64,000 nucleotides of DNA from an uncultured Phycisphaerales bacterium (GTDB lineage Bacteria > Planctomycetota > Phycisphaerae > Tepidisphaerales > Tepidisphaeraceae). This document shows positions 4,968 to 43,623 of the stretch, piece after piece. How positions within the stretch are numbered: position 1 is the stretch's first letter; every line of letters begins with the position of its first letter. The stretch spans positions 96,001 to 160,000 of the forward strand of contig CAWJPJ010000007.1 of NCBI GenBank assembly GCA_963844715.1. Direction: 5' to 3'. The notes beneath the pieces were generated by a model, which saw only the letters and a program-made list of their open reading frames with translations, did no database searches and was not told the origin of the DNA. Both the position numbers and the translations under genes were made by a program.

Positions 4968-5003
4968 AAAAAAGAAAGCCGGGGGATGAGAATCCCTCGG
5001 CTT
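4968..5003 (-). terminator. Intrinsic terminator downstream of the Tad-adhesin array
   Basis: Minus strand AAGCCGAGGGAT-loop-ATCCCCCGGCTT followed by TCTTTTTT. Confidence 0.8.
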
Positions 5004-5025: not shown

Positions 5026-6689
5026 TTATTGAACCAGGTCGACCTGGAACACGTTGATGGTGATGCCGGTGAAGGCGCCGGTGTTGTTGGCCCATTCCTG
5101 GCCGTCCATGGTACCCAGGTAGAAGCGGCCGGCATTGGCCGGAACTACGATGCTCTGCTGCGCGCCACGGACACCGTTGTTGGTCTGGCCGCTGCCGGTG
5201 TAGAAGACTTGCTGAACGGACGGTCCAATCTGGTCATAGTTGCGGGCGGTCTCGTTAGTGAAGTCATATCCGGGGGGCGCCTTGGTTCCCAACGGTTGCG
5301 GAGCGGTGTTCCCGTCCGTCGGCACCGGCGGCAGAAATACGCCCATCATCGAATTGAGCGGGGCCGCGACGTTAGACAGGTTATTCTCGCTGCCTTGAAT
5401 CACATCGTCATCGCCGGAACTCGTCAAAAGATTCGTCGTCTCGGCTGAAGACTTATTTCCGATGCTGTCTTTCGTCGCATCCCAGGTGTTGTTTGCCTGC
5501 GGATCGTTATTGTAGGCCGCGTATTGTTGCATCGCGCCGGCGTCATTAGTGGGAATGGCGCCGACGTCCTCGTATATTTCGGAAGTGGTGGGGGCGTTGC
5601 CATCGACATAACCGTTGGCATCGGTTGTTACGGGGTTATTTGAGTTGACGACCTCATTAAGAGTCGAGCCGGAGGTTGGCAGAGGGGCGCTAATCTGAAT
5701 TACTTCGCCCGCCTGAAGCGGGATGTCCGCTCCGGAGCCGGTCTCCACCTCCAAGGGCGATTCGGACGTATCGGGAAGACTCGTTAGCGGATTAATCGTA
5801 GTGTACGTGGGATCGCCTTTCGCATTGTTCGGACCTGTAATGTTCCCTCCCACGGGGCCGGCCATGTCGTATTCAAGGGGGTGGGCTATCGCGTCGGCTT
5901 CGCTTGCGTCGTCTTGATAAATTTCGTCTGTTTCGACTGGTAGTTTGTTGACGGTTGTCTGTTGCAGTTTATCGTCTTGATTGAAGTCCTCGGTCGGCAA
6001 CTCAGGAGCGCTTGCGTAGGTTCCCTTCTGGGGGTCAGTGGGGTCAAATGGCGGCGCTCCAGCGAGGTAAGGATTGTATCTGCCCATGACTGTCTGGGGG
6101 GCAACCCCGTTGTTGGAATTATTGTTCGGGCCGTCATTTGGATTGCCATCGGTCAGGTTGGCGACGGCGGCAATGGACGAGCAATAGACGTCGTCGGTAC
6201 TGATTCCGAGAACCGCGGTGAACAAAAGGGGAATCGGATCACTGTTGGGAGTGATTCGGCGCGCCAAACCTGCACGGCGTTCGTCGGTGAACCACCGGCG
6301 ACGAATGTTTGCGTTTGAAAGTTCCAATTGCCGATCTGGAGGTCGCCGCTATTGGTGCTGACGTCGTCGACGTTGAACTTGGTGCTGTCCATGACCTGGC
6401 CGTCCACCGTCGAATTATTCATCACAGCGACGACGGCGCTCACGGCGTCGGTGGTGTCGGTGAAGCCGCCAGTATTGGTCCAACCGCCGCCATCGAGGAG
6501 CGCCGAGGCGCCGGCCCTGGCGGCGGAATCGGCGGCGCGGCGGAGTTCGGACTTGGCGGCCTGTACGCGCCCCATGTCCACGGCCAAACCCATCAGCGCC
6601 ACCAGAACAACCATGCAGACGCTCAGGTAGACGATAACCATCCCGCCCCGGCGGCGCGCACGGTGACTTAATTTGTTGCGACGTGTCAT
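5026..6689 (-). CDS. TadG-like pseudopilin/adhesin A with LecA-like C-terminal domain (frameshift near 6265)
   Basis: RRRGG|MVIVY prepilin-like leader, LAVDMGR...ELRRAADSAARAGA Tad motif. C-terminus FYLGTMDGQEWANNTGAF. Joins ORFs 6153..6704 and 5026..6327. Confidence 0.8.
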
Positions 6690-6828
6690 AAGTGCATACC
6701 CCATCCGAACGGGGAGTATGCACTGCGACTGGCTTACGGTTTAGAAAATTGCGCAGTTTTTGCAGGCTCGGACCGATTGAGTCCGAGAATTTGGGCAGGA
6801 TATATGGGACGTAGGGGAAAAAGGCGGG

Positions 6829-6904
6829 TAGTTGCCAGTTGTTAGTCGCCAGCTGCCGGTGGAGAGAGGGTCTTCGCCGGCAACCGGCAACTCGCAACCG
6901 GCAG
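6829..6904. repeat. Second heptamer-unit palindrome (GTTGCCA-type / CGGCAAC-type)
   Basis: GTTGCCA-GTTGTTA-GTCGCCA-GCTGCCG, spacer, CGGCAAC-CGGCAAC-TCGCAAC-CGGCAG, immediately after the adhesin B stop. Confidence 0.7.
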
Positions 6905-6913
6905 ATGGTTTTC

Positions 6914-8281
6914 TTACTGCACGGTCACGATCTGAAATTGGGTGATGGTGACGTTGAAACCGCCGATGTTGTTGCTCCATTCGTGGCCGTCCATGGTGCC
7001 GAGATAGAGCTGGGTGGCTCCGGAGGGGACGACGATGGTCTGCTGCGCCGAGGTGCTGGTTTGGCCGGTGCCGACGTAGAAGGTTTGGAAGTCCTGGGGC
7101 TGGATGGAGGTATAGTCGCGCTCGGACTGGGTACTGAAATCGAGTCCGGGCGGAACGGTGGTATTGGCGGTGTAGGTTGCGCTGGAGGCGCTGTACGTGT
7201 CGTTGGCCGCGCCGTTCTGGAAGACGCCGACGAGGGAATTGATCGGCGTGTTGATGTTCGACATGCCGTGCTCTTCGCCCTGCGCGTCGGAGGCGGAGCT
7301 GGAATTACCGGCGCCGACGTCGTTGGGTCCGCTGTATCCCGGGGGCGGAGAATAACTATTGGGGTTCGAGTTGGCGCCATAATAGGCGGCGGCGTCGTTG
7401 GCGTAGGAGTTGTAGCTGGGACCGCCGTTGGCGTAGGTATTGGTGGTACCGCCGTCCAGATATCCCTCATTGTTCGATTCATCGCTGGAATCGGTGGGAA
7501 CGGAAATCTGAATGATCGAGTCGGGAGCGACCGTCAGGCTGTAGAGGGACGGAGACGCCCAGGGCTCGTTGTTGGTATCGTCGGTTGATTCGACTTTGCT
7601 GGAGTCGGCATTGACGCTGCTGGAAGTATCGGCGGGGCTGCCATTGGTGGCGCTGGGATTGGCGACGTCGTACTCCCAGGGGTGGGTGGTGTTTTTGTTG
7701 GGGTTGTCGTAGGCGGGATCGGGCACGCTGGCCAGAGTTCCCTTGGGTTCACCGGCGAGCCAGGGATTGGCGTGCGCGGAGACATACATGGTCACAGGCG
7801 CCTGGACGGTGACGAGGGCCGCGGTTGAGGAAGCCCAGACGTCGACGGTGGTGACGCCAATGAGTCTTCCGAAGAGGGTTGAGATTGGGTTGCCGTTGGC
7901 GGTGGTGCGGCGAGCGTAGACACAGACGGCGTTGTTGGGGGTGCCGCCGTTGGTGAAAGTCGCCGTGGTGCTGTTCCAGTTTCCGATCTGGATGTCGGTG
8001 GAGGCGTTGAGCGTGATGGTGGCGCCATCGACGGTATTTTGCGCCGCGATATTGATGGCGGCGTTCTGGGCGGCGGTGGTGCCGCTGCCGAGATTGGCGA
8101 CGGCGGCGCGGGCGGCGGCGTCGGCGACGCGATGGAGTTCGGTCTTGACGGTCTGGGCGCGGGCCATGTCGACGGCCAGGCCAAGCATCGCGATGAGCGC
8201 GGTCATGGTGAGCAGCACGTAGACGTAGACGGCGCCGCGGCGGCCGGTAAACCGGGATGATTTGATTTTCAGTGTGTTCAT
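6914..8281 (-). CDS. TadG-like pseudopilin/adhesin B with LecA-like C-terminal domain (intact)
   Basis: RRG|AVYVY leader, LAVDMAR...ELHRVADAAARAA. C-terminus LYLGTMDGHEWSNNIGGFNVTI. GGGGAG RBS before 8281. Confidence 0.85.
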   Translation of the reverse strand: MNTLKIKSSRFTGRRGAVYVYVLLTMTALIAMLGLAVDMARAQTVKTELHRVADAAARAAVANLGSGTTAAQNAAINIAAQNTVDGATITLNASTDIQIGNWNSTTATFTNGGTPNNAVCVYARRTTANGNPISTLFGRLIGVTTVDVWASSTAALVTVQAPVTMYVSAHANPWLAGEPKGTLASVPDPAYDNPNKNTTHPWEYDVANPSATNGSPADTSSSVNADSSKVESTDDTNNEPWASPSLYSLTVAPDSIIQISVPTDSSDESNNEGYLDGGTTNTYANGGPSYNSYANDAAAYYGANSNPNSYSPPPGYSGPNDVGAGNSSSASDAQGEEHGMSNINTPINSLVGVFQNGAANDTYSASSATYTANTTVPPGLDFSTQSERDYTSIQPQDFQTFYVGTGQTSTSAQQTIVVPSGATQLYLGTMDGHEWSNNIGGFNVTITQFQIVTVQ

Positions 8282-8299
8282 GAATTCTCCCCGGCAGTG

Positions 8300-8325
8300 A
8301 TCGGAATTACGAGGCCGCCGCTTGA
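8300..8325 (-). promoter_or_regulatory. Sigma28/SigD-like promoter of adhesin B
   Basis: TCAAG-N15-TCCGAT, 18 nt upstream of the ATG. Confidence 0.5.
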
Positions 8326-8500
8326 TCAGAATTTGGTCACGCATGGGTTACCATCCTCAGCGCGAGGAATATTATTGGACCGACCGCCGGCCTCGGCGCG
8401 ATCTGTAGCCGCGCTGACGATCAGATACGATTAAAAATTTGCGAAGTCCAATGGATCAAATTTCGCGCGAAAATCGGGTTTTTCTGACGGTTCGTCCGCG

Positions 8501-9683
8501 TCATTGGACGGTGACGACCTGGTAATCGGTGATGGTGACGCTATAGCTGCCGGAGTTGTTGCTGTTTTCGTGGCCGTCCATGCTGCCCAGAAACATGCGC
8601 GTCGCGCCGCTGGGGACGTTGATGTATTGCTGAGCGGAGCCCGCGGCGGAACTGGTGGTTCCGGTGCCGGCATAGAAAGTCTGCTGGAGCTGAGGGGAAA
8701 CGGAGGTGTAGTCGCGTTCGGTCTGCGTGGAGAAATCGAGGGGCGTGGGGGCGGTGCCGCCGTCGGGGGTACTGCTGTTGAGAAAGACGCCGACCATGGA
8801 ATCGCCGGGGACGTCGATGTCGGACATGCCGTGTTCCGAGACGCCGTCGGCCGCTTCGTCATCGTCCATTCCGATGGTGCCGCCTGAGGTCTTATCGACG
8901 CCGTTGGCTTCGCCCTCGTCGTCGCCCGGTCCCTTTAATACGGTGCCGCTGACGCCGGTGAGGGTGATGACGTCGCCGGGATTGACGGTAAAATTCACCT
9001 GCAAAGGCGAAGCATAGGGTTCGCCGGTTGCGTAGTCGGTTGACCAGTTCTTGCTCGAATCAGTCCCGCCATAGGTTCCCGCGAGGTCGTATTTCCACTC
9101 GTGCTGCGCGTCGGCGTATTCGGAGTCGGGCACGCTGGCTGAAGTTCCCGCCGGCTCGCCGGCGAGCCAGATATTCGAGGTGCCGTTGACGGTGCCGGTC
9201 ATGCTATGTTGCAGGACCAGGGCGGCGGTGGAGACGGCCCAGACGTCGACGGTATTGACGCCGATCAATGAGCCGAAAAGCAGCGACAAGGGATTACCGT
9301 TGGCGGTGGTGCGCCGGGCGTAGACTGCGCACTGCGTTGTACGGAGTGGCGCCGCTGGTGAACGTGGAGGTCGAGGTGTTCCAGTTTCCGATCTGAATGT
9401 CGTTGGTGGTGCTGAGCGTGATGGTCGCGCCGTCGACGGTGTTTTGCGCGGCGATGTGGACCGCGGCGTTCTGCGCGGCGGTGGTGCTGGTGGAGAGATT
9501 GGCGACGGCCGCGCGGGCGGCGGCGTCAGCGACGCGGCGCAGCTCGGTCTTTACGGTCTGGGTGCGGGCAAGGTCCACCGCCAGTCCGAGCAGGCTGCAC
9601 AGCGCCGTCATGGTAATTAGCGTGTAAATCATCGCGATGCCGCGACGATTATTTAATTTTCCAGACCCACGGTAAGCTTGCAC
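8501..9683 (-). CDS. TadG-like pseudopilin/adhesin C with LecA-like C-terminal domain (frameshift near 9327)
   Basis: RRG|IAMIY leader and Tad motif. C-domain VNPGDVITL...MFLGSMDGHENSNNSGSYSVTI. Joins ORFs 9294..9683 and 8501..9289. Confidence 0.82.
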
Positions 9684-41652: not shown

Positions 41653-43623
41653 CGCACCACCGTTTCCACATCTGGCGATAAGCCGCTTCGATATCGCGCA
41701 AAACTTCTGGCATCGACGAGGGGGGATTCCGCGACGCGCTGGCGTAAGCCTGACCGAAGTTTGGCAAGCTCGTCGCGATTTGAGGCCATTTGAGCGGCGA
41801 GTTGCACGTACTGAGTTCGATCTTGAGCGATCAGTTGCGGCAGGCCGACGTTGGAGAGAAGACTGACGCCGACGCGTCCGGCGTGCGTGGTGCCGGCCAG
41901 GACAATCACGGGGACGGACATCCAAAGAGCCTCGCACGTCGTCGTCGTGCCGTTGTAGGGGAATGGATCGAGGGCGATATCAACCTGATCGTAGAGACGT
42001 AGATGATCCGAGAGCGACGGGATTTTGCCGTGAAGGATCAGGCGGTCTGGTCCGATTCCGTGCGCGGCGAAGCGGGCCAGCATTTGACGGCGCGAGAAAT
42101 CGTCGGAGAGGCCATGGCTTTTTAGCATCAGGCGGCTGCCGGGAACGGCGCGCAAAATCTCCGACCAGGTTTCGACGACCAACGAGTTGATCTTGGGGAG
42201 ATAGTTGAATGAGCCGAAGGTGATCGGGGATCGGGTGTTCGCGGGGGAGGGAGTCGTTTGCGACGGCGTATAGCATACGAAGCATTTTGGAAGCCGGAAT
42301 AATTTTTCACTGTAAAAAGGATCGGCGGTTGTCTGGGGATCGGCGTAAGCGTCGGTGAGGCGCCAGTCGATTGTCGATAATCCCGTGGTGCCGGGATAGC
42401 CGAGGTAGGTCACCTGCGCCGGGGCGGGCTTGCGCAAACGCGAGGAGCCGATTTTCCCCCGTGTGCCCGGCCAGATCGATCAGGATGTCGATCCGGTCTT
42501 GCCGGATGATTTCGGCGGCTCGCTCGTCGGATTCGCCTATGAGGGACCGCCACTCATGGGACGCGTCGCGCAGTCTCTGTGTCATGGCGTCGGGGCGGGG
42601 AACGTCGGCGTAGCAATAAATTTCGACCTGTCCTGGATCGTGATTCGCGAATAGGCCGGTGAGGAAATACGCCACGGAATGCTCGCGGAAATCGGGCGAG
42701 ACGTAGCCTATGCGAAGGCGGCGGTTGGGATCGCGATCATTGGGGTGGGGTTTCGCTTCACGGGCGAGATGGGCTGCGTGGAGGCGGTTCCACTGGGCAT
42801 GTTCCCTGTAAATCGCCGCGGCGTCGTAGTTTGGATGGGCGTGCAGCGAGAGCAGGAGATTGTCGTTGGCCTGCACGAGATCGGGCTTGAGTTTGAGGGC
42901 CTGCCGATAGGCTTCGATGGCCTGGTCCAGCTCATCGCATTCCTTGAGAAGATTTCCCAGGTTGGTGTACGCGCCGGGGAAATCGGGGCGCAACCTCAGA
43001 GCGATTCTGTACTGCTCGATCGCTTGCTCGGTTTGGCCTCGGGACTGAAAGCACAGGCCAAGGTTGTTATGGGGATCGGCGTAGGCGGGATTGAGCGCGA
43101 TCGATTTTTCCAGCGCGTCGATGGCGTTTTGCGTCTGGCCGAGAGAGGCGTAGGTCACGCCGAGAAAATTGTGAGTCTCGGGTCTATCGGTGGCGAGTTG
43201 AAGCGCTTTGTGAAAAGCTTCCAACGCTTGCGGCAGCTCTCCCCGATGGCGCAATTGCTCGCCGGTCTCCTCGAAAAGAGTGACGAGATTGAATCTGGCG
43301 TCGCGATGATCGGGCTTGAGTTTCAGCGCGGAGGAAAGCGCCTCCTGTGCCGCGGCCGCATCTCCGGATTGCGCCAGGGCGATGCCCAGATTGGAAAGGA
43401 TGTCGGCGGATTTGGCGCGATGCGCCGCCGCCTGGCGGAGGAGCGGCAGCGCTTCGCTCGTCCGCCCCGTTTGCGAAAGCAGGACGCCCAGGAGATGCAG
43501 GGCGTCGACCTGATTGGGAATCCGCGCCAGGACTGATCGATACCCCGATTCCGCTTCGGGCAGACGGCCGGATTGATGAAGCCGCACGGATTGCCCGAGG
43601 ATTTGCTCGATGGGCTGGGTCAT
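41645..43623 (-). CDS. TPR + GT41 SPINDLY-like protein O-glycosyltransferase 1 (frameshifts near 42435 and 41697)
   Basis: TPRs, RIGYVSPDFREHSV, IDILIDLAGHT, PAP.QV.YLGYP.TTG, FGSFN...KI, LDPFPYNGTTTTCEALWM.VPV. Confidence 0.88.

Follow-up and report, generated by a model that had tools for sequence, protein, structure and literature searches.

We analysed a 64,000-nucleotide stretch of DNA (the window) from an uncultured Phycisphaerales bacterium of the family Tepidisphaeraceae (genome G000, 4.55 Mb and 85% complete). Positions 5026-9683 of the window hold three co-oriented paralogues on the minus strand, in the order C, B, A. Judged by their sequences, their products are almost certainly TadG-type minor pilins of a Tad pilus, and structural modelling gives us high confidence that the head carried by each adopts the fold of LecA. 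The features of the array are listed below.

8501..9683, minus strand: copy C, TadG-like minor pilin with predicted LecA-fold head; assembly frame broken near 9326; the short-read version runs to about 393 codons
8516..9196, minus strand: predicted LecA-fold domain of copy C (AlphaFold2 model with Foldseek and VIA-align; upstream bound set by alignment)
8555..8578, minus strand: predicted calcium and sugar loop of copy C, DGHENSNN, with Asn in place of the conserved Trp; short-read contigs concur here
6914..8281, minus strand: copy B, TadG-like minor pilin, intact, 455 amino acids (P0001)
6929..7798, minus strand: predicted LecA-fold domain of copy B, residues 162-451, ahead of the pilin's last strand (structure comparison)
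6968..6991, minus strand: predicted calcium and sugar loop of copy B, DGHEWSNN, aligning with the N107-N108 stretch of LecA
5026..6704, minus strand: copy A, TadG-like minor pilin with long acidic insertions; assembly frame broken near 6263; the short-read version runs to about 559 codons
5083..5106, minus strand: predicted calcium and sugar loop of copy A, DGQEWANN, a variant shared with the orthologue L037 of the related genome G138
8234..8242 (B), 9639-9647 (C) and 6642-6653 (A), minus strand: RRG end of the class III prepilin leader, from sequence, with presumed cleavage

A first-pass annotation of the window had described these genes as paralogues sharing an RRG-hydrophobic leader, a Tad motif and a C-terminal domain, and this description was borne out. 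Both PF13400 (Tad) and PF09977 (Tad_C) exceeded their curated cut-offs in all three copies, with scores of 45.2, 31.7 and 32.6 bits against 22.3 for PF13400 (E 1e-11 to 2e-7) and of 26.3, 35.9 and 25.1 bits against 22.1 for Tad_C. The two domains were also found in 116 of the 120 homologues listed, among which Tepidisphaeraceae was the sole taxon named (seven rows); the bacterium is thus probably a soil-living member of this family. Each N-terminus consists of a basic RRG leader followed by a hydrophobic helix with Tyr at position +5 of the mature helix; the leader pattern was present in 79 of 119 homologues. The C-terminal parts of A, B and C display 31-46% pairwise identity, and as tblastn comparisons gave E values of 1e-92 and 3e-47, their kinship is far above chance. 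The model of copy B contains a helix (residues 15-62) and a sheet, with modest pilin-fold matches to PilX (Z 5.3) and TTHA1218 (Z 5.4) over residues 36-159 in VIA-align.

Predicted fold and calcium site of the head

The AlphaFold2 models of copy B and of the C head reached predicted local distance difference test scores of 89.3 (120-row alignment) and 85.6 (92-row alignment), respectively. With the C head, Foldseek placed LecA first (E 8e-4, probability 1.0), followed by EclA-N and PllA. A VIA-align comparison against 48,161 chains gave Z scores of 9.7 for LecA (root mean square deviation (r.m.s.d.) 2.5, 110 residues aligned), 9.7 for PllA and 8.2 for EclA-N, these three being the sole chains with a Z of at least 5; the next match scored 4.3. 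With full-length B, the same comparison gave 9.9 for LecA 3zyb (r.m.s.d. 2.4, 117 aligned), 9.0 for PllA and 8.0 for EclA-N, the next being 6.7, and the LecA-family matches fell in residues 157-455. According to the tool, Z scores below 8 are common; the LecA-family matches reach 8.0-9.9 and cover nearly all of LecA. Foldseek returned no match at E≤0.001 for the full-length B model. Since this model ends in a long final strand and TadG proteins with other heads share a similar tail, we infer that the head is inserted into the pilin module, ahead of its final strand. The top ESM Atlas cluster was unnamed and mostly from Planctomycetota (0.93); another, 17% of whose members are PA-IL, scored 0.78-0.79 and is a lead only.

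Concerning sequence, profile A3 of the head gave only three matches among 177,635 sequences of the PDB, all to LecA-family members (E 0.11-0.86, not significant). Profile A4 gave one weak match to EclA-N (E 0.83), and profiles A1 and A2 gave none. The domain had been likened to LecA and the PA-IL family at first pass. The likeness was retained as a predicted fold, but membership of PF07828 was not, the heads lying below its cut-off and having a shorter loop and large insertions. The cut-off (22.5 bits) was not reached by any protein of the window, where no PA-IL match was found at E≤1, and none was found in 62 scanned homologues or at the array in a search of its own genome. Three weak PA-IL matches in G000 (E of at least 0.1) lie off the array, and the one inspected overlies an unrelated repeat protein. 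In a profile search for bridging proteins, none of the best 120 of 1,216 bore a PF07828 label, and as a planctomycete PA-IL member, L030, reached just 13.6 bits against the head-domain profile, there is no significant transitive link to PA-IL. No Pfam or NCBIfam model corresponded to the head domain (NCBIfam scan, seven proteins). Two planctomycete domains, L029:427-738 (G241) and L030:1501-1860 (G238), do score above the PA-IL cut-off and have the canonical longer calcium loop, and L030 has a PEP-CTERM-like tail at its end. These two domains may be intermediates linking LecA to the head family of the array.

Asn108 and the carbonyl of Tyr36 are Ca2+ ligands of LecA. Asp100, Thr104 and Asn107 of this lectin contact galactose, and Asn107 also binds Ca2+ (PMC9321714; this and the other articles cited are drawn on through excerpts of their text). 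In EclA-N, the side-chain calcium ligands are Asp114, Asp121 and Asn122 (PMC11875179). By alignment and conservation, residues that appear to match the LecA side-chain ligands Asp100, Asn107 (Asn or Asp) and Asn108 are present in the heads: HMMER aligned the Asn-Asn of the family with positions 107-108 of LecA, and its Asp with that of EclA-N and of the planctomycete PA-IL member. The D...NN motif quoted in the earlier annotation does occur in all three copies, and its equivalents are 92-100% conserved in 374 homologues, a set biased towards the query. In the 168 TadG-fused and 206 other members of this set, Asp is found in 100% and 97%, the first Asn or Asp in 99% and 92%, and the second Asn in 99% and 98%, respectively. 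The loop has the form D-x5-N-N in 164 of the 168 TadG fusions and 181 of the 206 others. TadG rows additionally have a Glu (93%) and a Trp (97%) beside the calcium-ligand residues, and D431, E434, N437 and N438 of copy B are invariant in 120 TadG rows. As for His50 and Gln53, further galactose contacts of LecA, a His stands at a comparable place in 74% of the non-TadG rows, in a poorly aligned region, and may match His50. We consider it very probable that the head binds Ca2+, and sugar binding likely, though with less assurance.

The loop variant of copy C, DGHENSNN, is also found in its orthologues L042 of G138 and P0062. Some TadG subgroups (L035, L058, L034, L036 and L052) have altered loops, with either an extra residue and WWD, or WDFYEW, which suggest further ligand classes.

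Tad machinery, assembly state and surroundings of the array

PF13400 matches in G000 were confined to the three genes of the array. The first-pass annotation had proposed that the Tad machinery is encoded elsewhere, and a genome search located it on contig C6 (1157222-1167844; L005:7222-17844), where two flp genes, tadV, two tadE genes, rcpC, rcpA, tadZ, tadA, tadB and tadC are clustered and no tadG is present. In all four relatives inspected (G112, G111, G010 and G081), the gene order is flp-tadV-(tadE)-fusion-rcpC-rcpA-tadZ-tadA-tadB-tadC, the fusion being a TadG with LecA-fold head. When 150 listed of 338 domain matches were compared by eye with 150 listed of 158 rcpC matches, the fusion lay 0.5-1.3 kb upstream of rcpC in seven genomes, and an eighth had it at 2.4 kb; the four relatives just named are among these eight. 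Because it occupies the slot before rcpC in the tad operons of relatives, the fusion is a true Tad component, which in G000 most likely works in trans with the C6 operon. Among the matches listed, G111 and G081 have a single fusion copy each, and one copy therefore appears to suffice. The two tadE paralogues of the C6 operon are 39% identical, compared with one tadE in the same-genus genome G137; tadE1 lacks an in-frame start and tadB and tadC are split, probably through assembly errors. A complex prediction for TadG-B, TadE1 and Ca2+ (score 0.07, mark 0.32), run without controls, was taken as evidence in neither direction.

Copies A and C are each spread over two frames in the assembly. At 6263, both short-read contigs covering the site (runs X1 and X3) have one extra base, and at 9326 the sole contig spanning it (X2) has one base fewer; depth was 3.6-4.4 at the two sites, and the runs come from a single soil study in which X1 may be the source sample. 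The corrected frames are free of stops over 559 and 393 codons. In G138, all three orthologues lie in single frames (68-74% identity for C, 48% for A). The splits in tadB and tadC are of the same type (two of the seven tad genes compared with G137). Taking into account that the short-read contigs restore the frames, that the G138 orthologues are whole and that tadB and tadC are split alike, the splits in A and C are very likely assembly errors.

The array is flanked by an ABC pair, a family 4 glycoside hydrolase and a transaldolase. Two hairpins were found in its spacers.

6832..6903, minus strand: near-perfect long hairpin between B and A (-50.1 kcal/mol, z -7.2, 0 of 200 shuffles equally stable)
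4977..5003, minus strand: terminator-like hairpin with U-run, 3' of copy A (z -3.5, 3 of 200 shuffles equally stable)

The former may uncouple the expression of A, but could also be a terminator or a small repeat element; no counterpart was seen in the corresponding spacer of G138. The two hairpins together hint at separate control. A promoter and terminator scan around the array gave no signal above shuffled sequence, and no shared upstream motif emerged among eight spacers. A link through sugars to the family 4 glycoside hydrolase was considered and left unused: the enzyme is a conserved neighbour, but the terminator-like hairpin lies between. Elsewhere in the window, positions 477-2129 encode a TPR-repeat protein with a weak match to glycosyltransferase family 9, and similar-looking ones start near 43623 and 62193.

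Distribution and recurrent duplication of the fusion

The first-pass annotation had called for a survey of Tad and LecA-like architectures. Among 141 genomes of the family (a tally that includes G062), profile A3 matched in 113, and 95 of these matched strongly (E≤1e-30); the 18 weak matches (E above 1e-9) may reflect the pilin part only. In the same tally, rcpC was present in 126 genomes. In other families of the phylum, three of the 300 genomes sampled had the domain, with nine candidates per genome scored, and no TadG module was detected at the three out-of-family loci examined. Among proteins at large, the domain was matched at E≤0.001 by 1,913 representatives (50% identity). Sixty-two that did not look like TadG were scanned, of which 11 had PEP-CTERM and others PKD, Ig, M23 peptidase or a type IX secretion tail. 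In G137, a frame with the LecA-fold domain (L025:9580-10440, contig C13) has no TadG module and matches a PEP-CTERM-type profile. These architectures suggest that the LecA-fold module moves between pilus tips and surface anchors. The large exported proteins P0124, P0125, P0126, P0131 and P0132 have several domain-matching stretches each, which are likely tandem copies giving multivalent binding.

TadG heads swap modularly between LecA-like, vWA and DUF7305 domains. In five chosen genomes, 28 PF13400 matches comprised two short TadE-like proteins, as judged by length, and 26 long TadG proteins, whose heads were LecA-like in 15, DUF7305 in seven and vWA in one, with three lacking a known domain. 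The earlier assumption that vWA is the usual TadG head does not hold in this family. DUF7305 is the second common head (L038, L041, L043, L044, L045, L050, L051 and L028:7838-9094), with one weak ice-binding-like adhesive match, and G047 contains a tandem trio of DUF7305-headed TadG genes.

The array slot beside the ABC pair is conserved, with two copies in G137, three in G138, three in G019 and four, one of them DUF7305-headed, in G045; the family 4 glycoside hydrolase on its other side is kept in G137, G138 and G019. A tree was built from 50 chosen domains over 178 columns under LG+G4, without an outgroup. In it, each of A, B and C grouped with its own G138 orthologue (support 100, 100 and 93), and pairs in G137, G019 and G045 were within-genome sisters (support 100, 92 and 100). 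By these sequence comparisons, duplication at the slot has happened repeatedly, and loop variants specific to one copy are retained from one species to another. Such persistence fits distinct targets for the copies and does not prove them.

The array as a proposed set of alternative pilus tips, and known systems

We cautiously favour the reading that the three copies are alternative tips of the single Tad pilus of this genome, gripping sugars via a calcium ion. The TadV of the distant tad operon would cleave the RRG leader. One TadG would then join TadE to start the pilus and remain at its far end, as in other Tad systems; large minor pilins have this tip position in the Myxococcus Kil tips and Caulobacter CpaL (PMC12075869, PMC11870444). 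In the predicted fold, the conserved Asp, Asn or Asp, and Asn would hold a Ca2+ ion that bridges two hydroxyls of the sugar as in LecA. The loop differences (Trp to Asn in C, Gln and Ala in A) and the distinct insertions would give each tip a separate target among soil polysaccharides or cell-surface glycans, and galactose would not be required.

Several observations weigh against this reading. The sequence similarity of the head to LecA is not significant alone, and only 110-117 of its 180-290 residues align with LecA, so that function could reside in the inserts. Compared with LecA, PllA and EclA (x6), the loop lacks one residue, the D-x6 form occurring in no TadG fusion, and the His kept in non-TadG rows is missing from the TadG rows and from all three copies of the array. 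EclA-N, which shares the fold and binds Ca2+, gave no ligand on the two glycan arrays described in the excerpts of PMC11875179. As G000 is incomplete, a further tadG could be missing. Finally, the conservation of all three orthologues, in order, in G138 also suits co-assembly.

The loop, the lost His and the EclA-N precedent, together with large acidic, Asn-rich inserts in A and B, speak for the chief alternative, in which the heads are LecA-fold Tad tips with a structural or non-sugar calcium site, directed at a mineral surface, a phosphate or carboxylate, or a protein, and are adhesins rather than lectins. We regard this as rather unlikely, because the Trp and Glu conserved by the predicted calcium ligands, and copy-specific changes at exactly this loop, suit a ligand pocket, and of the three solved proteins that match, two are lectins for galactose.

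The copies could also be specialised subunits, assembled together or serially on one tip. Their tandem, co-oriented layout and one-to-one orthologues agree with this, and Tad tips have been modelled as minor-pilin trimers (PMC12075869, PMC11870444). However, slot copy number varies (2, 3, 3, 3 and 4) and duplications were independent in G137, G019 and G045, operons with a single copy exist, and G048 and G079 each disperse five copies over the chromosome. We consider co-assembly unlikely and alternative tips the likelier arrangement; interchangeable Tad tips have a precedent in the Myxococcus Kil system (PMC12075869).

A third possibility is that the tips, like those of the Myxococcus Kil pilus, recognise other bacteria and so serve contact-dependent killing or feeding. 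The several dispersed tadG and tadE-tadG clusters per genome do resemble Kil tip clusters, but the neighbours of the array are not killing genes, although no search was aimed at a secretion partner, and a soil isolate of the likely family is described as cellulolytic in the search listing of PMC13514998; this role seems very improbable. Scarcely credible is a decaying array with B alone functional and A and C as pseudogenes, as their frameshifts at read depths below five might suggest, since the frame is restored in three of three contigs covering the two sites, the G138 orthologues are continuous, and splits of this kind also affect tadB and tadC.

If the sugar-gripping, alternative tips are extended to the family as a whole, we arrive at a broader picture that is possible but speculative. 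The family would run a lectin-tipped, retracting Tad pilus with exchangeable LecA-fold heads renewed by repeated duplication, each tuned to a different polysaccharide or cell surface and pulling it to the cell. These heads would be candidates for planctomycete sugar-binding fibres, and LecA would be a trimmed offshoot of a larger environmental family of surface-anchored calcium lectin modules. In two other planctomycetes, dextran has been found attached to pili-like fibres; the excerpts of PMC5394234 name no protein. Because the domain was found in only three of 300 sampled genomes of other families, it cannot, as things stand, explain those two species. The array genes nevertheless allow a direct test of fibre-sugar binding in a group related to them. 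Tad tips are now thought to bear variable heads, few of which have a testable ligand; the LecA-fold head offers a named fold, residues and natural variants. As the domain marks an unnamed family, it also provides a pool of candidate lectins, possibly with new specificities.

In a literature search, mostly of open-access text without supplements, we found nothing relevant to a TadG with a LecA-fold head; tables of lectin predictions could list these proteins. In the text of PMC11266412 consulted, none of pili, pilus, lectin and Tad occurs as a whole word. The class of the array, TadG, is known; a LecA-like mode of working is predicted for its heads, outside PF07828. With TadG, CpaL and KilN of Tad (type IVc) systems, the array genes share the prepilin leader, a hydrophobic helix with a residue other than Glu at +5, a pilin module with a head, and, in relatives, the slot before rcpC. 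Several alternative tips per genome are also described for Myxococcus Kil (PMC12075869). The predicted head is LecA-like, whereas it is vWA in Caulobacter CpaL (PMC11870444) and an uncharacterised scaffold in KilN, and the array consists of tadG genes in tandem without tadE genes of their own. PilC of Streptococcus sanguinis likewise has a glycan-binding domain on a pilin module in a tip complex (PMC12075869, PMC11870444), but it is of type IVa, with no paralogue array described in these excerpts, and no PilC chain was among the listed fold matches of the B or C-head model. With the LecA/PA-IL lectins (LecA 1l7l and 3zyb, PllA 5odu, EclA-N 6ygq; for LecA and PllA see PMC8350385), the heads share a predicted jelly-roll core of 103-117 residues (r.m.s.d. 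2.3-3.3 Å, Z 8.0-9.9) and the Asp...Asn/Asp-Asn calcium motif ahead of the last strand, and differ in sequence (18-26% identity), in the loop shorter by one residue and in about 60 to 170 extra residues. Whereas LecA is a soluble tetramer of 121-residue subunits, these heads are predicted to be tethered to a pilin or a PEP-CTERM anchor.

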